From: a virus
Length of the DNA stretch: 64,000 nt
Reading direction: 5' to 3' (one strand)
IMG/VR virus record: IMGVR_UViG_3300003177_000010
Location: 48,795-112,794 of that record
Positions 3,801 to 64,000 of this stretch are shown one piece after another. Each line of letters begins with the position of its first letter. Within the stretch, counting starts at the first letter, position 1. Made by a program: the position numbers and the translations under genes. The notes below the pieces were generated by a model. It was given only the letters and a program-made list of their open reading frames with translations, had not been told where the DNA came from and made no database searches.

Positions 3801-4038
3801 TTATACTTATACTTTCTGACTTCTTATAAAAATTATTTACAATTTCAACAATTATCCTAGATGCAAGAAATTCATTAGTTTTCTTTAATTCTTTATATTC
3901 TATTAAAGCTTGGGAACAATAACTATTATACATTTTATATTGTTCTAAGATCGCAATAGATTCTTTTAACGTAGGTCTTTTTCTCATTATATCCAAAATA
4001 TCTTTATTTTTTACTAATATCAAGTTTTTTGTTGACAT
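3793..4038 (-). CDS. hypothetical protein (possibly leaderless)
   Basis: ORF; TATAAT 7 nt upstream of ATG, no SD. Confidence 0.55.
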   Translation of the reverse strand: MSTKNLILVKNKDILDIMRKRPTLKESIAILEQYKMYNSYCSQALIEYKELKKTNEFLASRIIVEIVNNFYKKSESISING

Positions 4039-4060
4039 TTAAATTATTATAAATTATAAT
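4032..4060 (+). promoter_or_regulatory. consensus sigma70 promoter
   Basis: exact TTGACA-17-TATAAT. Confidence 0.8.
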
Positions 4061-4480: not shown

Positions 4481-4678
4481 ATGAAAATATACGTTAAGAA
4501 TAACAATGTAGACAAAGCTATGCGTGTGCTAAAACGTAAGCTTTTACTAGAGGGGGATACAAATGCACTAAAAGATAAAAGATTTTTTGTATCTAAAAGC
4601 GAAAAAAAGAGACTTATAAAAAAAGCAGGCCGTAAAAGATGGTTGCATAAGCAAAAAGAATCGCATTTGTTTGAGTAG
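4481..4678 (+). CDS. rpsU: ribosomal protein bS21
   Basis: VKNNNVDKAMRVLKRK...EG...KRFFVSKSEKKR family pattern, 65 aa, basic. Confidence 0.9.
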   Translation: MKIYVKNNNVDKAMRVLKRKLLLEGDTNALKDKRFFVSKSEKKRLIKKAGRKRWLHKQKESHLFE

Positions 4679-5249: not shown

Positions 5250-6035
5250 ATGAATAGAATAACTAATATGTATAGCCCTGTATGGACAATACCAAAAACT
5301 GATAAATTTACTAGCGTAAGCTCTAGTAATATAAAAAATAAGGTGTTTAAGCCCAAAAAATCAGGTACTAAAGCTTCACATATAATATTTATACTTGATA
5401 GCTCTTCCTCAATGAATGGTATTAAAGCAGGCACTATAGACGGTTTTAATGAGTTTTTGGATATACATAAAAAGGAATCTAAAGAAGACGGAGTTAAAAC
5501 CTATATTAGCTTATACAGCTTTAATGGATACTCTACTAAAAAAATACTCGATAGAAAAAATGTTAATTCAGTAGAAAATTTAACAGATAGCTCCTATAAT
5601 CCCAGCGGCATGACTAACTTATATGATAGTATAGGTAAAGTAATGCGTAAAATAAATAATAAGGTAAGTAAGTATAAAAAGTCTAGCAGAGACTCTTTAA
5701 TTTTCGTAGTATTAACTGATGGACAGGATAATACATCTAAGAAATATAATGGAGGCGCTATTAAAGAGATGGTAGAATTAGCTGAACAAGCTAACTGGGG
5801 TTTTACTTTTTTAGGCACTAATATAGATACTTTCGGTATAGGGACATCAATGGGCTTTAATTTACATAATACAGTAATGTACAAAGGAGCTAATATAAAA
5901 GAATCTATAGCTGCTGCAGGGGAAATGACTTCTAGACTAAGAACTGTTAGCCTATCTGGAAGCTCTATAATAGACGCTTATAGCTTATCAGGATATACAG
6001 AAAAAGAAAGATTAGAATCAGTAGGGTCAGAATAA
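5250..6035 (+). CDS. von Willebrand factor A domain protein
   Basis: MIDAS DSSSSM, GMTNLYD, LTDG; SD AGGAG. Confidence 0.85.
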   Translation: MNRITNMYSPVWTIPKTDKFTSVSSSNIKNKVFKPKKSGTKASHIIFILDSSSSMNGIKAGTIDGFNEFLDIHKKESKEDGVKTYISLYSFNGYSTKKILDRKNVNSVENLTDSSYNPSGMTNLYDSIGKVMRKINNKVSKYKKSSRDSLIFVVLTDGQDNTSKKYNGGAIKEMVELAEQANWGFTFLGTNIDTFGIGTSMGFNLHNTVMYKGANIKESIAAAGEMTSRLRTVSLSGSSIIDAYSLSGYTEKERLESVGSE

Positions 6036-6038
6036 TAA

Positions 6039-6683
6039 ATGTCTAATTTATACATTTTAGGTAATGGAGGTTTTGCACATGAGGTACGTGAGCAAATAAA
6101 AGAGCAATATACTGACTTAGGGTTCGGGGGTTACATCTATAAAGAAGGTGACGCTATAATGGTAGAATCCCCATTCAATACTATTAAGGAGTTTACTTTC
6201 CCTAAATTTAGCAGTTTTCTTTTAGGTACTGGAAATAAGTTTTGGAGGGCTTATTTTATAGACCTGATAGATGAGTACTATGGAGTAAGTAAAGAAATTT
6301 TTCCAAATATAATAGCGGATAATTGTTATTTATCATGTTACGCTAAAATAGGTATAGGTAATCTATTATGTACAAATTCTATAGTTCTTGGCAATGCCAT
6401 TCTAGGGGATTTTAACTTACTAAATGTGCAAACATTAGTATCTCATGACTGTGTAATAGGGGACCATAACTTATTAAATCCTAAAGTATCTGTATTAGGT
6501 ACTTGTAAAATAGGTAGTAATAACTATTTAGCTACTAATGTTACTATAATACCGAAAATCACAATAGGCAATAATAATACTATCAGCGTATCTGAGAATA
6601 TAGTAAGAGATATAAATAATAGTATATTTTTTAAAGACAACAAAGAAAGTAGTAAATATGCATATTCTATTCAGAAGTTGTGA
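6039..6683 (+). CDS. NeuD/PglD/VioB-like sugar N-acetyltransferase
   Basis: ILGNGGFAHEV N-terminal domain, hexapeptide repeats, VSHDCVIG catalytic His. Confidence 0.85.
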   Translation: MSNLYILGNGGFAHEVREQIKEQYTDLGFGGYIYKEGDAIMVESPFNTIKEFTFPKFSSFLLGTGNKFWRAYFIDLIDEYYGVSKEIFPNIIADNCYLSCYAKIGIGNLLCTNSIVLGNAILGDFNLLNVQTLVSHDCVIGDHNLLNPKVSVLGTCKIGSNNYLATNVTIIPKITIGNNNTISVSENIVRDINNSIFFKDNKESSKYAYSIQKL

Positions 6684-7419
6684 AGCTAATTTATCTCCAG
6701 GGTCTTTGGGAAAAGGCACAGATGATAAACCCAGATGGAATGGTAAGTATAAATTAGAAATCTTACGTAAATCTTATCTATCAATACAGGAAGGACTAAA
6801 TAAAGAAGATAGTATAATTATTGTTAATGATAGAACTACTAAAGAAACTTTAGAATGGATGAAAAATACTACAATAGCTAATTTCTCTGTAGTAGATATT
6901 ACTTCTTTAGATGTGCTAAGAAAAGAGCATAAGTATCCAAAGTATCATCCTGTTGTAATTAATGCTTGCCCAGACTTAACTGAATTACTAATACAAACTG
7001 CGGAAAGTAATCCAGAAGAATTAATATATATATGTGAAGATGATTACTTGCACACTCCTATAGCAATTAGCGCTATGAAAAATTTATATAATTCTTCTTT
7101 TGATGGGTTTTATGTACCTTATGACTACCCTGATAGATATACTATAGACAGGGAAATTAATACTAAGATATATTTAACTAACTACGGGCACATTAGGACT
7201 GTGCCTAGTGCTACTTTAACTATTGCAGCATTAGGTAAGACTTGGTTAAAATATAAGTATGAAATATTAAGAGCAGGAGTTTTTGCAGATGATAGCTGGA
7301 CTTGGAAAGCTTTCGCACAAATACCAGCATTTTGTCCTATACCTGGTCACGCTACTCACTTGCAAGAAGGATGTATTACTCCAGGAGTAGATTGGGAAAC
7401 TGTGTATGCTAATTACTAA
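6658..7419 (+). CDS. GT-A fold glycosyltransferase-like protein
   Basis: IIIVNDRT and YICEDDYLH (DxD-like) motifs, late His (HATH). Confidence 0.65.
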   Translation: MHILFRSCEANLSPGSLGKGTDDKPRWNGKYKLEILRKSYLSIQEGLNKEDSIIIVNDRTTKETLEWMKNTTIANFSVVDITSLDVLRKEHKYPKYHPVVINACPDLTELLIQTAESNPEELIYICEDDYLHTPIAISAMKNLYNSSFDGFYVPYDYPDRYTIDREINTKIYLTNYGHIRTVPSATLTIAALGKTWLKYKYEILRAGVFADDSWTWKAFAQIPAFCPIPGHATHLQEGCITPGVDWETVYANY

Positions 7420-8386
7420 AAAGTTAAAAATTAAGAATTTTAATAAATATATACAAGAGGCTAATAGGTCTAATATATTTACAAATTATGGCTATGCAGT
7501 ACAATTACTAGAAGAACGCGCTAGGTACATGCTAAAAATAGATGAGTCTAAAGCAATTATAGCTACTAGTAGTGGGACTGCTGCTTTACATGCAGCAGTT
7601 AATGTGTATGATTGTGAAAATATAAATGTGCAAGACTTTACTTTCCCTTGTAATATACAGGGGCCTTTAAATAATGCTATTATTGTTGATATGCATGACA
7701 GTGCTAATATAGCCTTAGATAAAGATGCTGACTTAATAGTAATAACTAACTGTTTTGGACACCTACAAGATGTAGTATTTATAGAAGAGTTTGCAGAAGC
7801 GCATGACATAGTTACCATATACGATAATGCTGCAACTCCTTTTTCTTTTATTAACAGCACTAACAGTTGCAATATTGGAGACGCGGCTATAATATCGCTA
7901 CACCATACAAAGCACCTAGGATTTGGGGAAGGTGGTTTACTAATTATAGATAAACAATTTGAAGATTTAGCTAGGGATATAATAAATTTTGCTAAGCATA
8001 GTGACCCTTTTTTAGGTAATAATTATAAGATGAGTGAGATAGCTGCTGCAGGAGTGCTACAGTGGTGGGATAGCTTCTCTATAGAAAGTTTAAAAAATAG
8101 CTTATTAGATAGATATTTTTATCTGTATGAGATGGCTAAAAAGTATGCTGAGCTATTTCCTAATGTTGCGGATGATTATTCTTTCTTACCTGCTAATTTA
8201 CCTATTATAATAGAAGATCAGTATATAAGAAAAGATGCAGAGAAACTAGGGGTTAAATACTATAAACCTTTACTAGGGCTACCAAATTCAAGTAAACTAT
8301 ATGAAAATATAGTTTGTTTACCAATAACAGGAAATATAAATGCAAAGAATAGCAATAGTAACTGGCTGCGCAGGATTTTTAGCTAG
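7406..8386 (+). CDS. DegT/DnrJ/EryC1/StrS PLP sugar aminotransferase (VioA-like)
   Basis: TSSGTAAL, DNAA, SLHHTKHLGFGEGG (PLP Lys), GNNYKMSEIAAA. Confidence 0.9.
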   Translation: MLITKKLKIKNFNKYIQEANRSNIFTNYGYAVQLLEERARYMLKIDESKAIIATSSGTAALHAAVNVYDCENINVQDFTFPCNIQGPLNNAIIVDMHDSANIALDKDADLIVITNCFGHLQDVVFIEEFAEAHDIVTIYDNAATPFSFINSTNSCNIGDAAIISLHHTKHLGFGEGGLLIIDKQFEDLARDIINFAKHSDPFLGNNYKMSEIAAAGVLQWWDSFSIESLKNSLLDRYFYLYEMAKKYAELFPNVADDYSFLPANLPIIIEDQYIRKDAEKLGVKYYKPLLGLPNSSKLYENIVCLPITGNINAKNSNSNWLRRIFS

Positions 8387-9299
8387 TACATTTGTGGAAC
8401 AACTACTAAATAGAGGGTGGTTTGTTTATGGTATTGATAAAATAACTAAAGTATCAAATACAAATAGGCTCAAGTACTTACAAAAAGTATTTCCTAACTC
8501 TTATAAGGTAGTAAAAGAGGATATATGTGAGGTAACATGGCTACCTGATGCAGATGTATTATTTAATTTTGCTGCAGAGAGTGATGTAGATAATAGTAAT
8601 AAAAGTAGTAAAGAGTTTTTTAAAAGTAACGTCAGTGGTGTAGCTAATTTACTAGAGGTACTTAATAACCAAATTAATATTAAAAATAGTAAAACTATGT
8701 TTTTTCAAATATCTACTGATGAAGTTTATGGAGATTTAATTTCTAATAGTGCTAATGAGGATAGTAAGCTAAATCCTAGTAACCCTTATGCAGCTTCTAA
8801 AGCAGCAGCAGATATGCTAATAATGGCTTGGAATAGAACACACGAACAGCCTTTTACTATAGTAAGACCATCAAATAATTATGGACCACATCAATACCCA
8901 GAAAAGTTAATACCTTTAGCAGTTAAAAATCTTAATAGAGGATTACCTATAAATCTGCATAATAAAGGTACTCCTATAAGAGTATGGACACATGTATATG
9001 ATACTGTAGATGCTATATTAACTATATATCATGCTGCAGAATTTAATTGTATATATAACATATCATCAGAATTTTCTCAAACTAACTTGGCTACAGTAGA
9101 AAAAATACTTAGCGCCTATGGAGTAGAACAGAGTAAATATAGTTACTATGTAAATATGCAGCATAACAGACCTGGGCAAGATGTTAGATATTCTATAACA
9201 TGTGAGCCGTTAAAGAGACTAGGGTGGAAACCTAAAAAACAATTTGATGACTCTATAAATCTATTAGTACAAGAGTATAGAAAGGAATTTAGATGGTAA
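8340..9299 (+). CDS. rmlB: dTDP-glucose 4,6-dehydratase
   Basis: TGCAGFL, AAESDVDNS, STDEVYG, YAASK, NNYGPHQYPEKLIP, RPGQDVRY. Confidence 0.9.
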   Translation: MQRIAIVTGCAGFLASTFVEQLLNRGWFVYGIDKITKVSNTNRLKYLQKVFPNSYKVVKEDICEVTWLPDADVLFNFAAESDVDNSNKSSKEFFKSNVSGVANLLEVLNNQINIKNSKTMFFQISTDEVYGDLISNSANEDSKLNPSNPYAASKAAADMLIMAWNRTHEQPFTIVRPSNNYGPHQYPEKLIPLAVKNLNRGLPINLHNKGTPIRVWTHVYDTVDAILTIYHAAEFNCIYNISSEFSQTNLATVEKILSAYGVEQSKYSYYVNMQHNRPGQDVRYSITCEPLKRLGWKPKKQFDDSINLLVQEYRKEFRW

Positions 9300-10030
9300 A
9301 AATAATAACCCCATATATCAACCCCAAAGAAATCAAAAAACATAAAGAACACTATTGGGAGTACGACATATACTATGAACAAGATACTGCCGGTATTGGC
9401 CCTGATTTAATGTTCCAAAAAATGTGGAATAAATTCCCTGATGATGATATATTTATTTTGCATTCAGATATGTTTATGAAAGATACTGATTGGTTATCTA
9501 AAGTATTAAAATATACTAATAAGTATCCAGAAGCTGGTATGTTCGGTTGCCTGTTACTTTATCCTCTAAAAGACGAAAAAGGTGACTATTTTATTCAATC
9601 AGCAGGAGGTAAATTTACAGACGGTAAGCCTGATCATTATGGTAGTGGTATTGTTGTAGAAAATAAATCCACGTTTAAGGAAGAGTTAGAAACTGATACA
9701 GGGGAGTACGATAGTGTAAGAGAAGTAGCTTGGACTACTTTTGGAGGTTGCTATATTAGAAGAAGTTTTATTAACGCAGTAGGGTCATTTTCTCCAGAAT
9801 ATGAGTGGGCGTATAATAGAGACGTAGACTTTTGCTTAGCTGCTAGAAGTGTAGGGCAAAAGATATACCAAATACCTGTAAGAATTATGCACTCCGAGTC
9901 TAAAGATGCTAAAATTATAAAAGCCAACGATCAAAGTAAAGTGCAGATGGAATTAAGAAACTTAAATAAATTAATAGATAAATGGAGCGGCTCTAAGCTG
10001 TATAAAACTATTGATAATAAGATTATATAA
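9293..10030 (+). CDS. GT2-like glycosyltransferase
   Basis: ILHSDM, FGGCYIRR, DVDFCL motifs. Confidence 0.75.
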   Translation: MVKIITPYINPKEIKKHKEHYWEYDIYYEQDTAGIGPDLMFQKMWNKFPDDDIFILHSDMFMKDTDWLSKVLKYTNKYPEAGMFGCLLLYPLKDEKGDYFIQSAGGKFTDGKPDHYGSGIVVENKSTFKEELETDTGEYDSVREVAWTTFGGCYIRRSFINAVGSFSPEYEWAYNRDVDFCLAARSVGQKIYQIPVRIMHSESKDAKIIKANDQSKVQMELRNLNKLIDKWSGSKLYKTIDNKII

Positions 10031-10049
10031 CTATATAAAAGGATATAAA

Positions 10050-10766
10050 ATGGCTACTATTACTAGACCACAAGTAACTGCTTCTCTAACGCTAGCAGAT
10101 GGGGTACAATCTAAATTACCAGAATATATGTTAGATCTATATGGACATAGCTCCTATAGGCTAAAGTCGTTTATTAATAATATTTGTAGTAAAAAGAACA
10201 CAAACTATTTAGAAATAGGAGTAGGTAGAGGTTCAACTATATTAAGTGCAGTATATGAGAATGAAACGTGTAAAGCTACAGGTATAGAAAATTATATGTA
10301 TGACGCTATAGAGCCTACTAAAGTACCTTTAGAAGGAACCATATGGTACAATATGCAAAGTCAGTTAAAAAGCAATCTAAGTAGATATGGTACTTCGGAT
10401 AATAATAGTAAAAAAGGGTCTATAAATATAATAGAAGAATACTTTGAAAAAGTTATGCCAGAGGATGTGCCTAAAGCAGATGTAGTGTACTTTGATGTGA
10501 CTCCTGTTAATGAAAAGGTATATTCTGATTTTTTTGAAAATATAGTTCCTTATATTAGTAGTTCTTCTGTAATTATATTCTCAAATTTTTCGAATACCCT
10601 ACATGAAAGGCAAATAAGAAAAGCATTTGAAGAGCGCGAAGATAAAGTAAAAGTACTATGGGAAGAAACTCGAGTTACTAGTAGCTTAAATGATGCTAGT
10701 AATTACTATTCCGGTATTGGTATATTTGGGGTAGTTAGATCTCATAAAGCAGTAGGTAAAGAATGA
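10050..10766 (+). CDS. class I SAM-dependent methyltransferase-like protein
   Basis: YLEIGVGRGST motif I, DVVYFD; ATG 10050 follows SD AAGGA. Confidence 0.7.
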   Translation: MATITRPQVTASLTLADGVQSKLPEYMLDLYGHSSYRLKSFINNICSKKNTNYLEIGVGRGSTILSAVYENETCKATGIENYMYDAIEPTKVPLEGTIWYNMQSQLKSNLSRYGTSDNNSKKGSINIIEEYFEKVMPEDVPKADVVYFDVTPVNEKVYSDFFENIVPYISSSSVIIFSNFSNTLHERQIRKAFEEREDKVKVLWEETRVTSSLNDASNYYSGIGIFGVVRSHKAVGKE

Positions 10767-11590
10767 AAAAAAGTGTTATAAGTTTAATCAGCTATGATGC
10801 ACATATGCTAATAGAAAGTATAAAATCTTATTATGCATATGTAGACGAAATTATATTAGGGCTTGATGAAGATAGAATTAGCTGGAATAATAATAAATTC
10901 TCTTTTAATGAGGGGGAATTATGGGATTCTTTACTATCTATAGATGTGGATAATAAAATAGAGGTAATTCAAAGTAATTTTCATTCCTCAAAAATAGCTA
11001 TAGAAAATGATAATTATGAACGAAATTTTCTTAAAAGTAAATGCACAAATAGTTGGATTTTTAGCTTTGATGCTGATGAAGTATTATTAAATGCGAAAGA
11101 TTTTTTCTATAGCTATTGCCCCATAGTCCATAAGTATAAAGAAGATAAAGATGTATGTATGATTTGGGTTACTCCTTTTAAAACTATAGGAGATACAACA
11201 TTACTAATAGTGAATGAAGACGGGGCACCTTTCTTCGGAGAAAATCAGAGCATAGCTACTTCTGTAAATAACACTTTTACTTACGCTAGATGGAGTAACG
11301 TGAGCGCTTCCGGGAAAAATAGGCTTATGTCCCCATTAATTGGGCTACATTGGAGCTTAGATAGAGATAAACAAGCATTGTATGAAAAAATTAACAATAC
11401 AGGGCATTCTGATATTGTTAATGAGGATCCATTTTTTTCTTTATGGAATAGTGTGACTTTAGATAATTATAAAGAATTTCATAACTTTAGAACATCAGGT
11501 ATAGGGCCAGCTCAGTGGCCTAGGTTACGCGCAGTACCTACAAAAGATTTAGTATCTTTTATTATGAGTTATAAGGATAAAGCGTATTAA
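10763..11590 (+). CDS. GT2-like glycosyltransferase
   Basis: YVDEIILGLD, ERNFL, WIFSFDADEVL (DxD). Confidence 0.7.
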   Translation: MKKSVISLISYDAHMLIESIKSYYAYVDEIILGLDEDRISWNNNKFSFNEGELWDSLLSIDVDNKIEVIQSNFHSSKIAIENDNYERNFLKSKCTNSWIFSFDADEVLLNAKDFFYSYCPIVHKYKEDKDVCMIWVTPFKTIGDTTLLIVNEDGAPFFGENQSIATSVNNTFTYARWSNVSASGKNRLMSPLIGLHWSLDRDKQALYEKINNTGHSDIVNEDPFFSLWNSVTLDNYKEFHNFRTSGIGPAQWPRLRAVPTKDLVSFIMSYKDKAY

Positions 11591-12735
11591 TGTTAATTGA
11601 AATATTAGGAAAATTTTTTGATAATCACTCTCTGAGTATTATAAATAGAAACTTAGCAATAGGGCTACATAACGCAGGAGTTGCTGTACAAATTATAGCT
11701 ATTGATTCTTATGACCACGAATTTAAAGTAGACAAAGAATCAGTAAAAATATTACAAAAGTTACGTAAGTCTACCGATAAAGTACCAGATATACAAGTTA
11801 GACATACTTACCCACCAATATGGCAGTGGCCAGAAAATAAAAAAACTAAAATAGTATTTATTCAGCCATGGGAGTTCCCTAAAGTACCTTTTGAATGGCA
11901 GTATAAATTTGAGTCATTTGCAGATGCTTTAATAGTACCAAGTTCTACTAATGCTGAAGTATTTATAAAAGGGGGCTTACGCAGTGATAAAGTTTTTGTA
12001 GTACCTAACGGGTATGACGACAAAATTTTTAAAAGTGGTAGATCAACAAGTTCTTATGTTGAGGAATCTAAATTTAATTTTGTATATGTAGGAAATTCAC
12101 AGTGGAGAAAAGGGTTAGATATACTGCTGAATGCGTGGCATAAATGTTTTAAGTCTTATGATAATGCAAGACTAATTATAAAAGATAACCCAAGGGTATA
12201 TGGAGATAGTAATATAATTAATGAAATCATCCGTATGCAATATAAAACTTCTTGTGCTCCTATTACTTATATAGATAGTGATTTATCTGTAGAGGATATG
12301 GCTGATTTATATAGTAGCTGTTCTGTTATTGTGCATCCTTACAGGGCTGAAGGCTTCGGTATGCATATACAAGAAGCAGTAGCTTCTGGGTGTTTTCCTA
12401 TTATTCCTAATAAAGGGCCTACTAATGACTTTATACCAGATGACTGTAGTATAAAAATAGATACTACTGCTACACCTATTAATATTGCAGATGCTAATAT
12501 ATTTGCTATGAAGCCAGGAGACTCAAGTACCTTAATGGGCACTCATACATTTATTGATGAGCCTTCTGAGCAATCTCTAGAAAAAGCACTTATGTATTTA
12601 TATCACAGCCATGAAAGAGATAAGATAGTTAGTAAAGTAAAGGGTATATCTACACTTAATACATGGGACAAAGTTATAAAGCAATACATTGATGTGTTTA
12701 ACAAAATAAGTAACAACCAGGTAAGGAGAACATAA
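11590..12735 (+). CDS. GT4 (GT-B) glycosyltransferase
   Basis: VVPNG, RKGLDILL, HPYRAEGFGMHIQEA (E-x7-E). Confidence 0.9.
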   Translation: MLIEILGKFFDNHSLSIINRNLAIGLHNAGVAVQIIAIDSYDHEFKVDKESVKILQKLRKSTDKVPDIQVRHTYPPIWQWPENKKTKIVFIQPWEFPKVPFEWQYKFESFADALIVPSSTNAEVFIKGGLRSDKVFVVPNGYDDKIFKSGRSTSSYVEESKFNFVYVGNSQWRKGLDILLNAWHKCFKSYDNARLIIKDNPRVYGDSNIINEIIRMQYKTSCAPITYIDSDLSVEDMADLYSSCSVIVHPYRAEGFGMHIQEAVASGCFPIIPNKGPTNDFIPDDCSIKIDTTATPINIADANIFAMKPGDSSTLMGTHTFIDEPSEQSLEKALMYLYHSHERDKIVSKVKGISTLNTWDKVIKQYIDVFNKISNNQVRRT

Positions 12736-12893
12736 TGAAAGATAGTATTTTACTAAAGTGTAAAAACAAAATTGAAATTATAGAGTTAGCTACAATTCAA
12801 GGGTTCGACCAAGGTGCTATAGATAAGCTTATAGCACGGTGGGTAGAGCTAAAAAAAGTAAAGAATAAAAAGAAAAATAAGTCTATTAATTAA
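12735..12893 (+). CDS. 52-aa hypothetical protein absent from the ORF track (MKDSILLKCKNKIEIIELATIQ...)
   Basis: SD AAGGAG; TAATG overlaps with both neighbours. Confidence 0.7.
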   Translation: MKDSILLKCKNKIEIIELATIQGFDQGAIDKLIARWVELKKVKNKKKNKSIN

Positions 12894-13162
12894 TGGACAA
12901 GGATTTTGGCGTTGCATTCCATAAACCTAATGGGAATGCAGTAAAAGTAACAATAAATGAGTTTAGAGATATATTATATCTACACATACGAGAATATATG
13001 ATGGATGGGGATACAGGCACTTGGTTCCCCACTAAAAGTGGTTTTTCTATGCATGCAGATGAGGTAACATCTTTAATACCTTTATTAGAAGAAGCAGGCC
13101 ATTTAATAGCTAAAAGGTACGAGCATTCTACACAACTAACATTGCCTTTGGAGTATAAATGA
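12893..13162 (+). CDS. PC4/p15-like ssDNA-binding protein
   Basis: VTINEFRDILYLHIREY...WFPTKSGF pattern; T5 encodes a PC4 homologue. Confidence 0.85.
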   Translation: MDKDFGVAFHKPNGNAVKVTINEFRDILYLHIREYMMDGDTGTWFPTKSGFSMHADEVTSLIPLLEEAGHLIAKRYEHSTQLTLPLEYK

Positions 13163-25201: not shown

Positions 25202-25858
25202 ATGGTAGCTTGGGATAAAGCAAAAGGAAAACAACCGGGTGGTGGTCAAAAACGTGACATAGTTAGGTTACCAATGAAAATGGGGGACAATAAAATTAGA
25301 CTAGTAGGTGATTTGTTACCTAGATATGTATACTGGGTAATTACAAAAGAGGGTAGAAAAATACCGGTTGAATGTTTAAAATTTGATAGAGAAACAGAAA
25401 CTTTTAATAATAATGCAGAAGATCCTTTTGACGAAATTGATGAAGCAGTATTTTCTGATAAACCACAATTTGCCTATGTGTGTAACGCAATAGATAGGTC
25501 TGATGGGCAAGTTAAACTATATGATTTACGTAGCACAGTATATGGGCAAATAGTAGACTATGCAAAAGACCCTGAGTATGGGCCCCCTACTGACGAAGTA
25601 AATGGTTATAACTTTAATGTTAAAAAAGAATCTACCGGACCCTTACCTCAAAATGTAAAATATACAGTAGTGGCAGGTAGAGGTAATGCACCTCTTACAG
25701 AAGAAGAAAAAGCTATGGAATTGTATGAGTTAGATAATATTATGAAAAGACCTACATATGATGAACAAAAAGCATGGCTACTTAAAAATACTACGTATTT
25801 TATGGCGGAAGTTACTGACGAATTTAAAGCTACAGAGGAAGTTACCGATTTAGCATGA
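25202..25858 (+). CDS. T5 D11-like single-stranded DNA-binding protein
   Basis: IRLVGDLLPRYVYW, KESTGPLPQNVKY, acidic C-terminal tail. Confidence 0.8.
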   Translation: MVAWDKAKGKQPGGGQKRDIVRLPMKMGDNKIRLVGDLLPRYVYWVITKEGRKIPVECLKFDRETETFNNNAEDPFDEIDEAVFSDKPQFAYVCNAIDRSDGQVKLYDLRSTVYGQIVDYAKDPEYGPPTDEVNGYNFNVKKESTGPLPQNVKYTVVAGRGNAPLTEEEKAMELYELDNIMKRPTYDEQKAWLLKNTTYFMAEVTDEFKATEEVTDLA

Positions 25859-26706
25859 GAAAGTCATTAGCAGAGTTAGCTAAAAATTCTGCTACTGATA
25901 ATAATAAAGCACCAGAACCTAGTAGTTTTGGTGCTTTTAAATCAGTAGAGGGTGGCCAAGCTACTATAGACCTAGATAAACTAAGAAAACATAATATATT
26001 TTTTGCTACTCCTTGCTATGGGGGTATGTTAACAGACCAATTCTTTTTAAGTATGTTTAAAACTTCTCAATTATTTATGCAGCAAGGTATTAACTTTAGG
26101 GTAACTACTCTAAGAAACGAGAGTCTAATAACTAGAGCTAGAAATATTTTGGTAGCTATGTTTTTAGAATCTGATTGTTCTCACCTTATGTTTATTGATA
26201 GTGATATTGAGTTCCAGCCAGAAGATATACTTAGAGCTTTAGCTTATGATAAACCAATAATGGCAGCTGCATATCCTAAAAAAACTATAGATCTAGATGC
26301 TGTTAGACGAGGAGAATCAGGAGTACAATATGCTATAAACTTTAAATTTCAAGATATAGAAAGTAAAAAGGTACGAGTGGATAAAGGGGCTGTAGAAGTA
26401 CTGGATGCTTCAACAGGGTTCTTCTTAATAAAAAGAGAAGTTATTGAAAAAATGATAGCTGCACATCCAGAGCTACATTACCGAAATGACTCTAATGTTG
26501 ACCCTAGGTTAAATAAATATTGCTACGCTCTCTTTGATACAGTAATTGACTCTACAGATTCACGCTATTTATCTGAGGATTACACGTTCTGCCGTCGCTG
26601 GCAGGATCTAAAAGGGGAAGTCTGGTTAGATACTAATACAAAACTTAATCATGTTGGTAGCTACACTTTTGAAGGTGATGTGTCAAAAATTATAAACCGT
26701 GGTTAG
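25855..26706 (+). CDS. GT-A fold glycosyltransferase-like protein
   Basis: FATPCYGG, RARN, MFIDSD, TGFFLIKREV, SEDYTFC. Confidence 0.7.
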   Translation: MRKSLAELAKNSATDNNKAPEPSSFGAFKSVEGGQATIDLDKLRKHNIFFATPCYGGMLTDQFFLSMFKTSQLFMQQGINFRVTTLRNESLITRARNILVAMFLESDCSHLMFIDSDIEFQPEDILRALAYDKPIMAAAYPKKTIDLDAVRRGESGVQYAINFKFQDIESKKVRVDKGAVEVLDASTGFFLIKREVIEKMIAAHPELHYRNDSNVDPRLNKYCYALFDTVIDSTDSRYLSEDYTFCRRWQDLKGEVWLDTNTKLNHVGSYTFEGDVSKIINRG

Positions 26707-38637: not shown

Positions 38638-41600
38638 TTATACTCCTATAGCTGTTATCATTACGTTTGCAGAACTATTAGCTAAGTATTGCCCAGAGCC
38701 ATTACTAGCAAATATATTAAAAGATAATTGGTTATTTGAAGCTGCTGTAGTAACTACTATAGCAGTATTATTTTGTGCATCAACTTGATCTATTATAGTA
38801 TATGTTATTGTAGGTCTATATATAAAATCAGCTGTGCTATAATCTACGTTAGTTGGGCTACTTGTATAAGGAACTGTAGTTGTAAAAATTGTTTGTTCTT
38901 TATCTACTGTATATCTTAAGGTATCTATAGTATAATCATAGCTACCGGGGTTATTATTAGTAATTTCCTGTTTAAGCTGAAAGTATCTAAACCTGCGAGT
39001 ACTGGTAGTAAAAGGTGCCCAACCATTACTAGATGCACTACCTATAAAGGCTAATACATTAACATTACCGTTTGCAAAATATACATTGTTTGTAGCTACT
39101 CTTATGAAGATTTGAGAAGTTACTGCTCCTAGATCACCAACGTAGGTAGCATCTACACCTGTGTCATTATATTGTCTAAAGTTTACCAAAGAGTAAGTAC
39201 TAGGGGCAGAAGTAATATTACTAAAGTAATTAGCGCTAGTAGGGGACCCGTTAGCATAAAAAGTAGCTCCTAGCTCTATAGCATTAGCATTTATAACACC
39301 TGCTACTAGAGCGTAAGAATTAGCATTAGCATAGTCTCCTATATATTGACCATAGTTCCATATGCCCCATACATTACCAGCTACTCCTCCATCCATTATA
39401 GTTTGGTTATTAGCATCAAATCTACTATCTACTACTGCGGAGTTGTTAAATCCTAATACATGGCCGATACCGCCGAAGCTTGTATCTATTAAAACATTTG
39501 AAGAAGTTGATATATCTGATACCGAGGAAAAAATATCTATATGTTGGTCATTCCACTTATTATTTATAACTTGGTAAGCATTATTAGTCAATACTATAGA
39601 GGCAGTAACTTCAGTAAGCATGTCTCTAATAGGAGTTATATAAGTACTAGAAGACTCCGCTAATATATCCGTAGCACTACCTATTATTACGCTAAAGCCA
39701 GTAGAAGACCCATTAGCATTATCAATTGGAGAAGAGTAACTATAAGATAGGCCACCGGTATTAGAATTAGCAAAGGAAGGAAAATAATACTCATTAGTAT
39801 TATTATTATTTATAGATGCAAAACTTACGTAGGGATTATCTTCATTATAAGCTGCAATAGTATTTGTTTTCTTAGGCTTAACAGTAGTTAACGTTATTCC
39901 TTCTACAGTATCACTATAATTGCCACTAGTATCTTTAGTTCTAACTAGGTAAGTAAATGTACCGTACATGTCAATAGGTATAGATTTTCTAGCTGTACCA
40001 GCCGATACGGTAACCAAATCATTAGCTACTATATAGTTAGATAAAGTCGCAGCTTTAGTTCCTGGTATTTTACGAATTATAACTTCTTTTAAGTCTATAT
40101 CAAATAAGTCACCGTTTTTACGTACGTATTGCCAGAATAAAGTAATCTGGGTATCTTGTTGTCCTCCAGACAGCCCAATAATATTTAAAGGAGCAGCAGT
40201 CTTACCGATAATAGTAGCTGATTTAGTTGTAGTTACCCCTCTAATACTATTATTAATAGGAGTAATTCTAAATGTTATACTATTAGATCCACTAATAGCC
40301 CCTCTATTCACTCCTGATACTGTAAAACTAATTCTACCTTCAGAAGTAACACCGCTAGCGGATACCTTAACAGTATTATAGTTAGTTAAACTAACACCAG
40401 CATCATTTCCATTTATATTTTCTACAGTACTTAACCTATAAGAAATTTCATAATCAGTAACTTCTTGATTTATTATATGGTCAAAAGAGCAGGTGACCCT
40501 AACACTTACCCCGCCTGTTTGTTCTCTATATAATGATTCGTCTATGCTTATATTGGTAACTTTTTGTATCGGTAAAGGTAATACTAGTACATCTTTATGC
40601 ACGTAGGAGCTAGTCCTACCTAGAGCACTTTTATTTCTAGCCATTAAAGATGTTACTCCTAGAGGTAGGTCTTTTATTACTAAATCCTTTGATAAGAACA
40701 CCTTATCATAGTTAGAATCTACTTCTAAAGTATATATACTACTATTAGCTAAATGTAAATATGTAGGATACTCTAAATTACTATAATCAAAACTACAAGT
40801 ATTATTGTACACGTTATTTATGTAACCTGTAGGATTACTACTAATATTTATAAAGCTAGCTCCTGCTAACTCAATATTAGGAGTTTCTGCCAGTTGTACT
40901 TTATATATATTATTAGCAGTAAGAGATGCATTATATATATTACTTTCTTTTATGTAAGATGCTTCTAACACAGAGAACACATTAGAACTAGATACTTGTA
41001 GAGAGTCTCCTAGTTCTATAGAGGGAACAGTATAAAAATCTACTTCATACCTAAATGTAGTATCTGATGTTGCTTTTGTATAAGTGATAAAAGCATTATC
41101 AGCATTGTTATAGTTTAAAGTTACAGAATACTGGCCACTATTTTTAAGAATACCGTCTATATATAGCTGTACATCTTCTATATTTCTAGGCTTAACATTA
41201 AGAGGTATATACTCTGTAGTACTATTTGTTAAATTGCCAGTAACTACTATATGTTTAGAAGTACCAGTTACATAAAAGGTGTTAGCAGCGTAATTGTTAT
41301 TAGCTAATAATTGAGAAATAGATATATTAAATGGAGTACTAGGTAATAAGTTAGATAAACTAATAGAATTTGTAATAGTATTAGGGATAGTAATACTATT
41401 GCTAGTGTTACTGTTTATTGGTCTAGATACATAAGAAGTATCGGAACTATAACCAATAAAATTTAGTTGATTTATTGTACTACTTTTATCTACTATAGGT
41501 ATAACAATATTGTTTGCACCTTTCAAACTTCCGAACACATTAGCGGAGTTAGTATCTAGTACGTGAGCACTAAAATTATCGTCGTAGCAATCAGATAGCC

Positions 41601-44289
41601 CATCTATTGACAGTGTTATATAAGAAGCATTACTAGTTACAGCACTACACTGAAGCTTAAGTTCACCTATAGGGGAGGTAAATCCACTCTTACCTACTAT
41701 AGCAGCCGGAGCACCATTAGATAATATAGCAGTATTTGAGGTAACTACTGTAAATGCATTTGTTGTATAAGCGTTAGATATTAAAGTAGAGGATAGAGGG
41801 TTAGCTAAATAATACTCTGTCTCAAAGTTTTGCCCAATACCTAATGTATCTGTATAATTGTTTATTATACCGTCTACTGCTACTGTACCATCTAATCTCC
41901 TAGTGTATTTTGCGTAAAAGTCAATTAAAGGAGCAGGAGGCGGTAACAAAGGACTAGGTATATCAGTATATGCAGTAGGCTCATAATTTATAAAAGTATC
42001 TGAATCCACGTATATATTAGAGATATATTCAATACCTGTAACTTTAACAGATTCCTCTTTAGAATTTCTAGTTATACTAGTTACTTTAAATAGTTTACCC
42101 GATTTACTAGTATAGTAATTATTTATGTTAGTAAATTCCCCAATACTCCATAAGTCGCCTGTACTAGGAGTACTATTAGCAGAAAAAGAACTAATAGGGA
42201 CTATACTTTTACTTATAGGGTCAAACTTACTTATAGCATGTACTTGTATTGTATCGGCACCAGTAGTAGTAGTACCATTATTATATATATTATAACTACT
42301 ATTACTAAGTATGTACAAATCTTGTTTATCACTACTATGACTTATTATACGCATAGCTAAAGGATAAGTATTACTAGTAAATAAAGACGAGGTTATTGCA
42401 GGCACAGTAAAGTGTTCTAAGGTAACATTAGCGTCGGAAGAGGAGCTATTAATAATTTTACCCCCATATCCATAAGCTACTCCAGTACCATTTACTGCTA
42501 TAGCTATAACATCTCCAGGAGCTAAAGATAATGCCTCAGTGCCCGTCTCAAAAGATATATGTCTTCTTAAGTACTTAGAAGATGCAATATGATACTGAGC
42601 AGCGCGTATAGCTTGCCCACGTCTAGTAACTCCTTGTAAATCTAAGGATAGTATGTTATCAATAGTGTTTCTAGTAAGTCCATCATTAAATTCTTGAGAA
42701 TCTACTCTAACTACTTCTCTTTTAAAATGATTAGTAGGCTCTATATAGCTAACATCTACTCCTGTAACTATTGATTCTTCTTTACTACCTGAGATAGTTA
42801 TACTACCCTTTTTTATGGACGCTTCATTAAACAACATCACTGGGTACATATCTGGCATATCTACTGCTAAGCTTATCTTACCTCCAGAGTATATTAATAT
42901 ACCTCTAAAAGTAGCTGTAATACTGTTAAGCACATCAATAGATAGCTGTTGGTCTACTAAACTTAAATCTAGTGTAAACCTGCGTTCAGGTACTATAGTT
43001 CCTGACGGCAACCCTACTTGGTTTTCTTTTACTTTAGTGTAAGTTCCTTGAGGTTTATACCTATAAGACCCGTCTGCAATACCTTCTACCCCATAAAATA
43101 CACCAGTGGTATCATCACAAGCGTCACAATACTGTGCTACTTGATAAAACTTATATTTATCTATATTTTTTTCTGGTATACCCAGTCCATAAGTATTATT
43201 AGTAAGTATATCGTAGACTATCCATACAGGGTTTTGTGTCCATGCATATACAAAAGTACCGTCCCAAGTACCTGTATAAATTTCAGGACTTGTAGAATAA
43301 TTAACTGTAGATGTACCACTTTTTTGTAGTCTATAACCATTAGAACTTAAGTAACTAGTAGGTACTTCTAGTTGCCTCCAATCAATGTCACCACTAGGCA
43401 ATATTGGTTGGTTATAATTAGAAGGTACTTTAACTAATAGCCCTTTAACCATAGAAGTAAAATTAGGTACTCCACCCGTATGCTCGTTAGTAGCTTTTAT
43501 AGCATAACCTATTAAAGCAGTTCTAGGGTACGCCTGTTTAGAGCTTTCAATTTCGTTCCACCCAGTTATCTTAATATCATCGCCTATTTTAGCATCAGAA
43601 GAATCATCTGTGGTCTTACTTACGGAAAATTTATATCCATTAGCAGATTTATAAGTTTCAGGTATTATTACTCTTATGGTAAACTTAAAAGATATATCAG
43701 TTTTACCTTTTATAACCTTAGAAGCAGTAGCTATTATATTGGAACTAGTATCATCGTACACATCAACTTTAACACCTACAGAGTAAGACAGAACCCCTCC
43801 AGAACTTGTACCTTTATATAGTTTACTAACTATAAAGTTAAAGTCTAGTATATCCCACGCACCATTACTAGTATCTTGTAGAGTAATGCTAGAAGCAGGT
43901 ACCCCAGCTAAGTTACCCTTTTTTAGAGTAACTGCAGAGGAAAAGTTTTGAGGAGTTACAATAGAATCTCCAAATACAGATAGCGACCCCTGCACAGTAG
44001 TACCTGTTGCAGTTAATGTTTTAAATTTATCAGTATTTTCTGCCCCATTCCCCTCTAAGAATAATAAATCATCAATGGAACTATCTTGTACTTGTATATC
44101 CTGAGGCCCGTTAGGATTAACACGATAAACGGGACCCTCTCCTATAGCATTAACTATAAAAAGTATATCAGTAGAGAATAAAGAGTTAGCATCTATTTTA
44201 GGAGTACCTTTACTACCCCCACCAGCACCTGCTATAACAGGTAGTGTTTTACCCTTATATGTTAAAAAATTACCCAAAGAAGTTACCAA
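38638..44289 (-). CDS. central tail fibre / tip attachment protein (lambda gpJ-like)
   Basis: GEGP, YPRTA, KVPSNY, WDGTF...WTQNP.W, YCD, FN3-like repeats, 1883 aa. Confidence 0.9.
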   Translation of the reverse strand: MVTSLGNFLTYKGKTLPVIAGAGGGSKGTPKIDANSLFSTDILFIVNAIGEGPVYRVNPNGPQDIQVQDSSIDDLLFLEGNGAENTDKFKTLTATGTTVQGSLSVFGDSIVTPQNFSSAVTLKKGNLAGVPASSITLQDTSNGAWDILDFNFIVSKLYKGTSSGGVLSYSVGVKVDVYDDTSSNIIATASKVIKGKTDISFKFTIRVIIPETYKSANGYKFSVSKTTDDSSDAKIGDDIKITGWNEIESSKQAYPRTALIGYAIKATNEHTGGVPNFTSMVKGLLVKVPSNYNQPILPSGDIDWRQLEVPTSYLSSNGYRLQKSGTSTVNYSTSPEIYTGTWDGTFVYAWTQNPVWIVYDILTNNTYGLGIPEKNIDKYKFYQVAQYCDACDDTTGVFYGVEGIADGSYRYKPQGTYTKVKENQVGLPSGTIVPERRFTLDLSLVDQQLSIDVLNSITATFRGILIYSGGKISLAVDMPDMYPVMLFNEASIKKGSITISGSKEESIVTGVDVSYIEPTNHFKREVVRVDSQEFNDGLTRNTIDNILSLDLQGVTRRGQAIRAAQYHIASSKYLRRHISFETGTEALSLAPGDVIAIAVNGTGVAYGYGGKIINSSSSDANVTLEHFTVPAITSSLFTSNTYPLAMRIISHSSDKQDLYILSNSSYNIYNNGTTTTGADTIQVHAISKFDPISKSIVPISSFSANSTPSTGDLWSIGEFTNINNYYTSKSGKLFKVTSITRNSKEESVKVTGIEYISNIYVDSDTFINYEPTAYTDIPSPLLPPPAPLIDFYAKYTRRLDGTVAVDGIINNYTDTLGIGQNFETEYYLANPLSSTLISNAYTTNAFTVVTSNTAILSNGAPAAIVGKSGFTSPIGELKLQCSAVTSNASYITLSIDGLSDCYDDNFSAHVLDTNSANVFGSLKGANNIVIPIVDKSSTINQLNFIGYSSDTSYVSRPINSNTSNSITIPNTITNSISLSNLLPSTPFNISISQLLANNNYAANTFYVTGTSKHIVVTGNLTNSTTEYIPLNVKPRNIEDVQLYIDGILKNSGQYSVTLNYNNADNAFITYTKATSDTTFRYEVDFYTVPSIELGDSLQVSSSNVFSVLEASYIKESNIYNASLTANNIYKVQLAETPNIELAGASFINISSNPTGYINNVYNNTCSFDYSNLEYPTYLHLANSSIYTLEVDSNYDKVFLSKDLVIKDLPLGVTSLMARNKSALGRTSSYVHKDVLVLPLPIQKVTNISIDESLYREQTGGVSVRVTCSFDHIINQEVTDYEISYRLSTVENINGNDAGVSLTNYNTVKVSASGVTSEGRISFTVSGVNRGAISGSNSITFRITPINNSIRGVTTTKSATIIGKTAAPLNIIGLSGGQQDTQITLFWQYVRKNGDLFDIDLKEVIIRKIPGTKAATLSNYIVANDLVTVSAGTARKSIPIDMYGTFTYLVRTKDTSGNYSDTVEGITLTTVKPKKTNTIAAYNEDNPYVSFASINNNNTNEYYFPSFANSNTGGLSYSYSSPIDNANGSSTGFSVIIGSATDILAESSSTYITPIRDMLTEVTASIVLTNNAYQVINNKWNDQHIDIFSSVSDISTSSNVLIDTSFGGIGHVLGFNNSAVVDSRFDANNQTIMDGGVAGNVWGIWNYGQYIGDYANANSYALVAGVINANAIELGATFYANGSPTSANYFSNITSAPSTYSLVNFRQYNDTGVDATYVGDLGAVTSQIFIRVATNNVYFANGNVNVLAFIGSASSNGWAPFTTSTRRFRYFQLKQEITNNNPGSYDYTIDTLRYTVDKEQTIFTTTVPYTSSPTNVDYSTADFIYRPTITYTIIDQVDAQNNTAIVVTTAASNNQLSFNIFASNGSGQYLANSSANVMITAIGV

Positions 44290-62800: not shown

Positions 62801-63744
62801 CAGGCTACTATTTTCTTGACGTTCACTTCAACGTAGACTTCGACTTCGCCTGAGCCTGAAAAGGACCCCAACCCTGCGGGGTTGGCGATTTGGCAATAAT
62901 GCCTCAGCTCAAAAACAGTCGTGGCGGTGATCGTAATCCTGCCGCGCAATTGCGTTGGCCATGAATTAATATAGGCCGTCCATGATGACATCCCGATTAT
63001 TTGATAGACCGCAGCCGTTATATTGTAGAGCGCGAGTTGGGTCCTTTGCACCTCATACGCCGTAGCAAATGCATCTATGTCATAAGTGCCAGCAGGTAGC
63101 GTGATCCGCCCAGTCGCAGGAGCGTAACTAGCCCCCGCAATCGAATTGTGCCGCTCAACATTCAAGCTTCGAGTATTCCAGCCAGCCGCCGAAGCCCCGC
63201 CGTCTGTGCCGCTTGCCTGTTCCTGCCGCCATTGCGCCGATTGTGAGGTTTGCGCCACGATCTCTGCCTTAACCCCCACGACGTCCGGGTATTTCCCGGT
63301 GGCGGTGCCTGCCTGCGCCTCTGCCGTTGTTGCCTTTTCTACAGCACCTTTTGTAGTGGTAGTAGCGCTGGCAACGCTGGCCCCTGATATTTGATTAGCA
63401 GCTAAGGTTAAAGCACCTCCGGAGACATCTAAAGTGCTCCCACTGCCGACACTTATGTTGCCTGAGTTATATAGTATATCCTGCCACCCTACTCCAGTAA
63501 CATTAATCTTAGGTATAGACTTTACTGTAGTACCGTTAATACCGGCGAACCTGATGGAGCCGCCTTCACAACCTAGATACATGTTACCTCCACTATGGGT
63601 AATAGTGTTAAGCCTATCTACTCCTGCTACTCGGTCTGTATCTTCCATAGTTATAGAAGGAAAGGATGCGAATAATGTTAAATATTTTACATTAGCTTGT
63701 AGAGTGTTATCTATTACAGTATTTCCGTTTACTTTTATTGCCAT
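62800..63744 (-). CDS. tail fibre / virion appendage-like protein, mosaic GC
   Basis: MAIKVNGNTVID N-terminus, ATTTTKGAVEKATTAEA fibre repeat, beta-sandwich C-terminus (ITLPAGTY); SD AAGGAG. Confidence 0.65.
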   Translation of the reverse strand: MAIKVNGNTVIDNTLQANVKYLTLFASFPSITMEDTDRVAGVDRLNTITHSGGNMYLGCEGGSIRFAGINGTTVKSIPKINVTGVGWQDILYNSGNISVGSGSTLDVSGGALTLAANQISGASVASATTTTKGAVEKATTAEAQAGTATGKYPDVVGVKAEIVAQTSQSAQWRQEQASGTDGGASAAGWNTRSLNVERHNSIAGASYAPATGRITLPAGTYDIDAFATAYEVQRTQLALYNITAAVYQIIGMSSWTAYINSWPTQLRGRITITATTVFELRHYCQIANPAGLGSFSGSGEVEVYVEVNVKKIVA

Positions 63745-63756
63745 TTTCGTTTCTCC

Positions 63757-63999: not shown

Positions 64000-64000
64000 C

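Follow-up and report, generated by a model that had tools for sequence, protein, structure and literature searches.

Glycans that are made by viruses have been worked out well only for eukaryotic giant viruses and, lately, for some mycobacteriophages. Here we describe a block of eight genes, which we call the module, from an uncultured phage (IMG/VR record IMGVR_UViG_3300003177_000010; 112,794 bp, rated complete by CheckV). We analyzed bases 48795-112794 of this record. This stretch of 64,000 nucleotides is referred to as the window, and the module occupies positions 6039-12735 of it. Judging from its genes, the phage quite probably makes a nucleoside diphosphate (NDP)-linked 4-acetamido-4,6-dideoxyhexose as well as rhamnose, and assembles a methylated glycan.

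Related chemistry is known from several viruses and from bacteria. In Mimivirus, L136 converts the 4-keto-6-deoxyglucose of uridine diphosphate (UDP) or deoxythymidine diphosphate (dTDP) to viosamine (PMC9614988). R141 feeds both L780 and L136/N-L142, R132 O-methylates N-acetylviosamine (Vio4NAc), and five glycosyltransferases are present; the fibrils bear rhamnose and 2-O-methyl-Vio4NAc, with the Vio4NAc methylated in part (PMC9614988). The glycosyltransferases for the chlorovirus capsid are soluble and are expressed early, and A064R of PBCV-1 joins two rhamnosyltransferase domains to an O-methyltransferase. The PBCV-1 glycan contains rhamnose, is methylated, and is attached to the capsid protein. 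Among the tailed phages, mycobacteriophages use phage-encoded glycosyltransferases to glycosylate capsid and tail-tube subunits at their C-termini (Freeman et al. 2023, as relayed in PMC12619734). Bacterial O-antigen and capsule pathways reach dTDP-Vio4NAc with RmlB, the 4-aminotransferase VioA, and the N-acetyltransferase VioB (as in Acinetobacter baumannii; 7txp). Finally, in phage DNA hypermodification systems, such as the alpha/beta-GT of T4 and the clusters linked to 5mYOX or ThyS, soluble glycosyltransferases of the GT-A or GT-B fold are encoded near replication genes, and they sometimes act in series.

Enzymes of the module and the sugars they would make

The eight open reading frames (ORFs) are all on the + strand, and adjoining ORFs overlap by 1-47 nt (Table 1). 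An initial annotation, which was made from the letters of the window without database searches, had placed them at exactly these coordinates, and its gene list proved right when each gene was searched with hidden Markov models (HMMs) and by structure.

Table 1. Features of the module, the rest of the genome, and related loci. Positions refer to the window unless a contig is named.
Feature	Position	Strand	Evidence or content
NeuD/PglB/VioB-type N-acetyltransferase, left-handed beta-helix (LbH)	6039..6683	+	Hexapep, TIGR03570, PDB
GT-A-fold glycosyltransferase	6658..7419	+	AlphaFold2 (AF2) model, Foldseek, VIA, E127-D128-D129
Pyridoxal phosphate (PLP)-dependent sugar 4-aminotransferase, L136 subfamily	7406..8386	+	DegT Pfam, PDB 7mfo
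NDP-glucose 4,6-dehydratase, RmlB type	8340..9299	+	GDP_Man_Dehyd, Epimerase, TIGR01181, PDB
GT-A-fold glycosyltransferase	9293..10030	+	AF2 model; nearest fold, catalytic domains of polypeptide GalNAc-transferases
Class-I S-adenosylmethionine (SAM) methyltransferase, Methyltransf_24/TylF-like	10011..10766	+	Pfam, PHROG, Atlas structure
GT-A/GT2-like glycosyltransferase	10763..11590	+	Atlas structure, invariant D103-A-D105
GT-B-fold GT4 glycosyltransferase	11590..12735	+	Glycos_transf_1, Glyco_transf_4, phrog_2170
Possible fifth GT-A-like protein	25855..26706	+	Anp1 29.6 bits, weak GT2, phrog_1574 E 4e-42
Sigma-70-type promoter match, TTGACA-17-TATAAT	4032..4060	+	12/12 consensus, divergent intergenic gap
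Extra tailoring genes in relatives	L009:3470-6246, L009:11933-12952, L009:17193-20285; L025:1105-9225		
rmlC and rmlD	G000:C1:43642-44976	-	TIGR01221 (RmlC)
Cytidylyltransferase-like/cupin fusion	G000:C1:46256-47035 (= L088:12257-13036)	-	rfaE domain II-like, phrog_7878; mannose-6-phosphate-isomerase-type cupin
bS21 ribosomal protein homolog	4481-4678	+	phrog_21469 E 1e-7
von Willebrand factor A (vWA)-domain protein	5250-6035	+	phrog_7371 E 9e-38
AAA ATPase	L088:8047-8907	-	
Helicase, 790 amino acids	22354-24726	+	LAGLIDADG homing-endonuclease match mid-protein, residues 310-499
Ribonucleotide reductase, 1066 amino acids	29809-33009	+	Family matches in two separate stretches
ORF of 728 amino acids	57876-60062	-	Matches to a head-maturation protease (residues 17-303) and to major head proteins (residues 79-706)

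Three of the enzymes make up a coherent path from NDP-glucose to NDP-4-acetamido-4,6-dideoxyhexose, which agrees with the route of RmlB, VioA, and VioB that had been proposed. First, the putative dehydratase would convert NDP-glucose to NDP-4-keto-6-deoxyglucose. It scores 271 bits against TIGR01181 (the cut-off is 365 bits), matches 2hun in the PDB with E = 1.4e-57 and R141 of Mimivirus (6vlo) with E = 2.8e-36, and contains the TDE and YxxxK motifs. Second, the aminotransferase is predicted to convert the 4-keto intermediate to NDP-4-amino-4,6-dideoxyglucose (NDP-viosamine). It matches L136 (7mfo) over residues 5-308 with E = 1.4e-45, as compared to 1.5e-7 for the next PDB chain, and the catalytic lysine of its SLHHTK motif is invariant in 33 homologs. 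The earlier view of this protein as VioA-like needs a correction: it is a DegT member that resembles L136 and not specifically VioA of E. coli.

Third, the acetyltransferase matches Hexapep and, at the family level, TIGR03570 (E = 7.6e-27; 94 bits, under the cut-off of 160.8). Its best matches in the PDB, across residues 2-194, are PerB (4ea7; E = 4e-9) and VioB (7txp; E = 6.5e-9), and PglD is also among its best solved relatives (the three range from 4e-9 to 2e-7). All three of these relatives acetylate a C4 amine. The phage enzyme is predicted to act on the C4 amine of an NDP-amino sugar as well, and it would yield NDP-Vio4NAc.

By its gene content, the phage can also make L-rhamnose, because rmlC and rmlD lie ~10 kb upstream of the module. 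The initial annotation missed this branch, which sits beyond the window. RmlC exceeds the cut-off of TIGR01221 (162.9 versus 155.75 bits), and RmlD is just under its own (215.8 versus 224). These two enzymes would convert the same 4-keto intermediate to dTDP-L-rhamnose.

The window had been said to lack RmlA, and this holds for the entire genome: PF00483 has no match in all 112,794 bp, as compared to matches in 14/14 control genomes. The starting substrate would be NDP-glucose made by the host. It would probably be dTDP-glucose, because RmlA is absent while RmlB, RmlC, and RmlD are of the bacterial type, which favors dTDP carriers. With this gene set, one host metabolite can supply both branches, with the 4-keto intermediate split between L-rhamnose and Vio4NAc. 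Near rmlC, rmlD, and an Hsp20 gene there is also a gene whose product has a cytidylyltransferase-like domain fused to a cupin (Table 1) and may be a sugar-activating enzyme in this RmlA-less genome.

Three of the remaining ORFs (6658-7419, 9293-10030, and 10763-11590) have no match in Pfam, NCBIfam, or PHROG and no convincing match to a PDB profile. For each of these, we aligned 25-33 homologs from related loci. The AF2 model of the first (pLDDT 88.5) has a Foldseek match with E = 4e-6, and VIA aligned 205 of its residues to GnT-I (1foa) with Z = 14.9 and an rmsd of 4.0. Its EDD triad is invariant in 33 homologs. We also considered if this protein could be a sugar nucleotidyltransferase. Foldseek ranks UGPase and IspD low, neither is in the top 50 from VIA, and the EDD triad and a C-terminal histidine suit GT-A instead, so we rejected this.

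The model of the second ORF (pLDDT 93; Foldseek E = 2.5e-7) is closest to ppGalNAc-T2 (6nqt_F; VIA Z = 16.0), followed by GlfT2 (14.8) and SpsA (13.2), and the protein is 50% identical to a glycosyltransferase from "uncultured virus" in BFVD. In the third, the invariance of the DAD motif (Table 1) is among the aligned homologs. Its Atlas structure has a TM score of 0.74 to a viral cluster, 32% of whose members have Glycos_transf_2, and of 0.62 to a bacterial cluster (from Bacteroidota) of TPR-containing GT2 proteins; the PDB profile matches are marginal (ThuS, 7msk, with E = 0.02; GmaR with E = 0.12). The GT4 protein does match known families (47 bits for Glycos_transf_1; E = 3e-26 for phrog_2170), and its PDB matches are generic GT4 proteins, including B736L of a chlorovirus (E = 9e-5). 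All four of the glycosyltransferases that had been proposed are upheld by these comparisons, with three of the four recognizable by predicted fold and not by sequence.

The methyltransferase scores 23.7 bits against Methyltransf_24 (the cut-off is 26.3) and matches phrog_1458 with E = 2e-19. Its Atlas structure has TM scores of 0.68-0.82 to clusters of Methyltransf_24, Methyltransf_3, and TylF, and it is likely to be a sugar O-methyltransferase. It had been described correctly as a SAM methyltransferase, but translation probably does not start at 10011: the Atlas record begins at residue 14, which makes the ATG at 10050 the probable start. In the pathway that we propose, the three GT-A proteins and the GT4 protein would assemble an oligosaccharide, and the methyltransferase would O-methylate one of its sugars.

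The possible fifth GT-A-like protein is encoded in the replication block, between the gene for a gp32-like single-stranded DNA-binding protein (SSB) and the gene for a Metallophos nuclease. It contains DSD and EDY motifs, and it has homologs in Caulobacter phage Cr30, the pelagiphages HTVC023P and HTVC027P, Sinorhizobium phages, and Synechococcus phages.

The layout of the genes suggests that the module is co-transcribed early. The + strand arm that contains it is headed by the sigma-70-type match in Table 1, which we take, as a lead, to be the likely early promoter. We found no terminator-like sites within the first seven genes (6039-11590) and one weak match (6 pairs, 3 G-C) inside the GT4 gene, at 12372-12387. 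Early transcription from a host-type promoter would have the sugar donors ready once the structural proteins appear.

Conservation in relatives and comparison to described systems

The phage seems to be a distantly T5-like siphovirus, because its virion genes encode a fiber of 1883 amino acids (38638-44289), a tail tube protein, a fusion of capsid protein and protease, and a terminase, and because its family-A polymerase (PolA) is 38-39% identical to those of T5-like phages of enterobacteria (Demerecviridae). The 113-kb genome also encodes a siphovirus tail, an NAD-ligase, and ThyA-DHFR, and there is a putative tape-measure protein of 1201 amino acids without a PHROG match, along with an Ig-like head-tail adaptor protein (56521-57795). 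The T5-like affiliation that had been assigned to this phage is kept, but as a distant one only, short of membership by any ICTV threshold that was applied. When we searched the phage collection for near-identical DNA, there was no match to the window. Among sequencing runs, the stretch turned up in the probable source sample only, and no RNA run was listed as containing it. One cluster of homologs has a member from Tara Oceans, which suggests that the lineage inhabits marine water.

We used tblastn to compare the eight proteins to 81 related loci. In about 55 IMG/VR contigs, all eight genes are present and their order is unchanged, at 30-70% identity, and the lengths of the ORFs are tightly kept. 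To avoid circularity, we re-sampled the lineage by using an unrelated and highly conserved neighboring gene (12893-13162). The GT4 gene was present in 32/32 loci with at least 4.5 kb of upstream sequence, and orf6 through GT4 were present in 18/18 loci with at least 9 kb. A more distant contig of 116 kb (L082) has the set at 28-49% identity and in a slightly altered order. Given this distribution across genomes, we view the module as a core trait of the lineage.

The initial annotation had raised the possibility that the block is a recent, degrading copy of a host O-antigen locus. This is ruled out by the intact and colinear block in ~55 contigs and by its presence in 32/32 of the sampled relatives. 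Also, the GC content of the module (~31-32%) is the same as that of its surroundings, and most of the window is at 29-38%.

The phage in the window has a minimal version of the module. All of the relatives (55/55) have an extra short-chain dehydrogenase/reductase (SDR), annotated as an epimerase/dehydratase, between the dehydratase and orf6, and in all of the measurable relatives (47/47), GT4 is followed by an additional 2.6-3.9 kb. We annotated this DNA in a single locus (L009), where it includes an IscA-like gene and genes for Asp/Arg-hydroxylase-like oxygenases; upstream, L009 has a further DegT gene (PseC/DesI-like) and two radical-SAM genes. One subgroup has a divergent first GT-A (22-25% identity) and another 3-5 kb of tailoring genes. 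Those of L025 encode, among others, two PhyH dioxygenases, a WbqC-like protein, and a second LbH acyltransferase, and L025 also has an SDR gene and another DegT gene. A core that is kept while the tailoring genes are swapped points to the kind of diversification that is seen in surface glycans, as far as gene content can tell.

The L136-like proteins are short (~330 amino acids). We found 386 of them at E <= 1e-10 in a metagenome protein set, and the 120 best listed of these score at least 264 bits each; contigs of 156-175 kb are among the sources of such metagenome homologs. A search for loci with the single aminotransferase as the query found nothing; an alignment-based scan that was seeded with two peptide motifs led to 83 confirmed loci in IMG/VR, including giant-virus contigs from metagenome-assembled genomes (MAGs) at 31-36% identity. 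The same scan of ~185,000 genomes of prokaryote species found just one locus, in a Bryobacterales MAG, at 30% identity. As a lead from a scan that was seeded on two motifs, this suggests that the subfamily is dominated by viruses. In a maximum-likelihood tree, the aminotransferases from the phage lineage and from giant viruses form two neighboring clades, far from a second DegT that served as the outgroup. Among isolate and GenBank phages, L136-like genes were found only in "uncultured phage" genomes of 462-735 kb, at 37% identity (LR756501.1:300232-301155), so huge phages appear to carry the subfamily as well.

The parallel to Mimivirus that the initial annotation drew reflects real homology in the case of the aminotransferase, and the list of parts matches the description in PMC9614988. 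Like R132-L143 and L780 of Mimivirus, the phage has a 4,6-dehydratase, an L136-type aminotransferase, an LbH N-acetyltransferase, a methyltransferase, and several soluble glycosyltransferases, and in both systems the rhamnose branch starts from the shared 4-keto intermediate. There are many differences, however. The host of the phage is a bacterium, not an amoeba, and the dehydratase of the phage has closer relatives in the dTDP enzymes of archaea and bacteria than in R141. The phage has separate RmlC and RmlD proteins of the bacterial type, whereas the bifunctional L780 is analogous and not homologous. Its acetyltransferase is free-standing, whereas that of Mimivirus is fused to a glycosyltransferase, and the module lacks a pyruvyltransferase. 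Also, the Mimivirus glycan is on the virion fibrils, whereas a virion target is a proposal in the case of the phage. All that the two clusters seem to have in common is the aminotransferase and, more loosely, the dehydratase and the acetyltransferase. We view the module as a putative phage counterpart, by mechanism, of the rhamnose/Vio4NAc pathway of Mimivirus, and not as an orthologous copy of that cluster.

The module can be compared to the other systems in the same way. As in PBCV-1, soluble glycosyltransferases are encoded by the virus along with a sugar O-methyltransferase, but the activities that are joined in A064R are on separate proteins, and the host is bacterial. Like the mycobacteriophages, this is a tailed phage with its own glycosyltransferases; theirs glycosylate virion proteins in the cytoplasm, in the account cited above. 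In comparison to those phages as described there, the module encodes a complete pathway to an amino sugar along with a methyltransferase and four glycosyltransferases, and it is located in the early arm; we saw no C-terminal tract in this phage that is comparable to theirs.

The module shares RmlB, a 4-aminotransferase, and a VioB-type N-acetyltransferase with the bacterial VioA/VioB pathways. Unlike the bacterial loci, the phage has no RmlA, no initiating transferase (of the WecA/WbaP type), no Wzx/Wzy, and no ABC exporter, and its short L136-like aminotransferase contrasts with the ~370 amino acids that are usual for DegT/VioA. Like the DNA hypermodification clusters, the phage has soluble GT-A and GT-B proteins near replication genes, but a base-hydroxylating enzyme is absent from its genome. 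The module fails the defining features of both a bacterial O-antigen locus and the known DNA-glycosylation clusters.

Candidate acceptors of the glycan

A hydropathy scan found no transmembrane (TM)-like segments in the eight module proteins, as had been stated earlier, and no protein with more than three TM-like segments among all 168 ORFs. With no polytopic membrane protein in the genome, the phage appears to encode no initiating phosphoglycosyltransferase, flippase, polymerase, or ABC exporter; the earlier statement that the window lacks a flippase and a polymerase can be extended genome-wide.

Because the enzymes are soluble, because the initiating transferase, flippase, and polymerase are missing, and because Mimivirus, as the sole characterized system with these sugars, decorates its fibrils, the likeliest acceptor would be a protein made by the phage, and most plausibly an exposed virion protein. 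The module would then be a self-contained cytoplasmic glycan factory and a core trait of an uncultured lineage of marine T5-like siphoviruses. By analogy to the other viruses, attachment to the virion or to another phage-made protein is a plausible outcome that falls a little short of being probable. The best structural matches of two of the GT-A proteins are enzymes that glycosylate proteins (the ppGalNAc-Ts and, marginally, ThuS and GmaR), which is consistent with this idea, though the margins are small.

Several observations weigh against this account. On the side of sugar synthesis, several HMM scores are under the curated cut-offs (TIGR03570, TIGR01181, and Methyltransf_24), and both the gluco rather than galacto configuration and the nucleotide carrier are deduced from ~35% identity to L136. 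When the three GT-A genes were used as profiles, there was no match in the giant-virus contigs with L136-like genes. The analogy to Mimivirus is limited to sugar synthesis, because the phage glycosyltransferases have no detectable homologs beside the L136-like genes of those contigs and seem to be specific to the lineage. As for early expression, the total number of promoter matches is not above chance. As for the acceptor, the module is in the replication arm, away from the virion genes. The structural arm has no excess of [ST]-G-S sequons (11 observed versus 10.9 expected; elsewhere, 12 versus 10.4), and the virion proteins have no tracts that are rich in serine or threonine (above 0.44 per 25 amino acids). 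In particular, neither the C-terminus of the capsid protein (57876-60062) nor that of the tail tube protein (53588-54856) has a Ser/Thr window at or above 0.44. Finally, soluble enzymes are not proof of a cytoplasmic protein target, because the glycosyltransferases that build bacterial O-antigens are usually peripheral and also lack TM segments.

This last point bears on another explanation, that the phage remodels the envelope of its host. The enzymes could act on the host's undecaprenyl-phosphate-linked intermediates at the inner membrane face, and an initiating transferase, flippase, and ligase from the host would carry the Vio4NAc/rhamnose glycan to lipopolysaccharide (LPS), capsule, or an S-layer or flagellar protein. 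Masking of the receptor would block superinfection, and progeny would not be lost on cell debris. T5 masks its own receptor via Llp. The combination of RmlB, RmlC, RmlD, and VioA-like and VioB-like enzymes is classic O-antigen chemistry, the module is probably expressed early, and the relatives show O-antigen-like swapping of genes, including the WbqC-like protein. The literature on marine phages usually files such glycosyltransferases under LPS modification (PMC9599517). However, the phage would depend on its host for all of the membrane steps, as the genome encodes neither an initiating phosphoglycosyltransferase nor Wzx, Wzy, an ABC exporter, or a GtrA/B-like protein. Also, an investment of 8-10 genes that is strictly kept in a diverged lytic lineage would have to suit the acceptor chemistry of many hosts. 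The presence of the aminotransferase subfamily in 83 viral contigs, versus one of ~185,000 prokaryote genomes, is weak evidence in the same direction, as the scan was motif-seeded. We consider envelope remodeling to be rather unlikely, but still a serious rival.

The module belongs to the replication arm, where the genes for DNA ligase, helicase, and polymerase come shortly after it. This location fits with a third idea: that one or more of the glycosyltransferases put the rare sugar on a base of the phage DNA, as protection against restriction or CRISPR. The fifth GT-A-like gene adjoins the SSB gene, and GT-A and GT-B proteins of other phages do build di- and trisaccharides on DNA bases (bioRxiv 10.1101/2023.12.21.572611; PMC13326640). 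But all of the described routes need a hydroxylated pyrimidine, from either a divergent ThyA homolog or a TET/JBP dioxygenase. This phage has a single ThyA-family gene, which is canonical (332 bits for TIGR03284; 329 bits for NF002497, with a cut-off of 327) and abuts DHFR, and the genome has no match to Tet_JBP (PF12851), C5 DNA methylase (PF00145), Asp_Arg_Hydrox, or 2OG-FeII_Oxy_3. Nor does the cited literature on DNA glycosylation describe an amino-dideoxy sugar on DNA or mention an aminotransferase, dehydratase, or acetyltransferase. DNA had been listed as an alternative target; these results weaken that option, which is the least supported one and, in our judgment, highly improbable.

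The search for an acceptor signature in virion proteins found none, which would fit with yet another type of acceptor in the cytoplasm: a non-virion protein of the phage or the host (such as a translation or regulatory factor) or a small molecule. The pathway might also serve mainly to divert dTDP-glucose from the host. Where the early arm begins, the module is in synteny with the phage bS21 gene and with further genes for host takeover. Soluble transferases that glycosylate a single protein do exist, such as EarP, which rhamnosylates EF-P, and GmaR, and GmaR is a marginal profile match of ORF 10763-11590. On the other hand, 4-5 transferases and a methyltransferase imply an oligosaccharide, which would be unusual for regulatory glycosylation, and nothing specific points to any such molecule. 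We consider this quite unlikely.

We return to the virion as the acceptor. Our most specific proposal is that the virions of this lineage, which would be globally distributed, are coated with a methylated glycan of rhamnose and N-acetylviosamine that is made via the virus-dominated L136-type aminotransferase. We offer this as a tentative possibility, and a somewhat doubtful one.

Neighboring genes and meaning for the phage lineage

The bS21 homolog is encoded just upstream of the module, and it is kept at 52-60% identity in 37 related loci. Between the two is the gene for a vWA-domain protein, with a gap of 4 nt to the acetyltransferase gene. Among the relatives, the vWA gene adjoins the module in L057 and L067 only. 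The vWA protein and the AAA ATPase that is encoded near rmlC and rmlD may be a MoxR-vWA-like pair that is split across the genome. Elsewhere in the window, the helicase and the ribonucleotide reductase both look like carriers of intein or endonuclease insertions (Table 1). The ORF of 728 amino acids has matches to both a head-maturation protease and major head proteins. Over the final 2 kb of the record (62001-64000 in the window), the GC content is higher, at 45%, versus 29-38% elsewhere.

A full-text search of the literature, whose coverage leaves out many subscription papers, found no report of viosamine synthesis in a bacteriophage or of this lineage or module. What is specific here is the combination of L136-type, VioB, Rml, and methyltransferase enzymes as a core and diversifying trait of a large uncultured lineage. 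This would extend a complete system, which both makes a rare sugar and builds a glycan, to a widespread lineage of marine phages. The L136-type aminotransferase ties these phages to the fibril pathway of Mimivirus by real homology. The enzymes are small and soluble, and they are possible sources of NDP-Vio4NAc. They may also include new families of glycosyltransferases, because three of the transferases do not match any model in Pfam, NCBIfam, or PHROG.

With a glycan on the envelope of the host, a lytic phage would be masking receptors in a new way. A glycan on the particle would bear on the stability, stickiness, adsorption, and recognition of these phages in the sea. And if the virions are indeed coated, then particles that are covered in rare bacterial sugars would be an ancient strategy that is common to phages and giant viruses, and that diversifies as O-antigens do.

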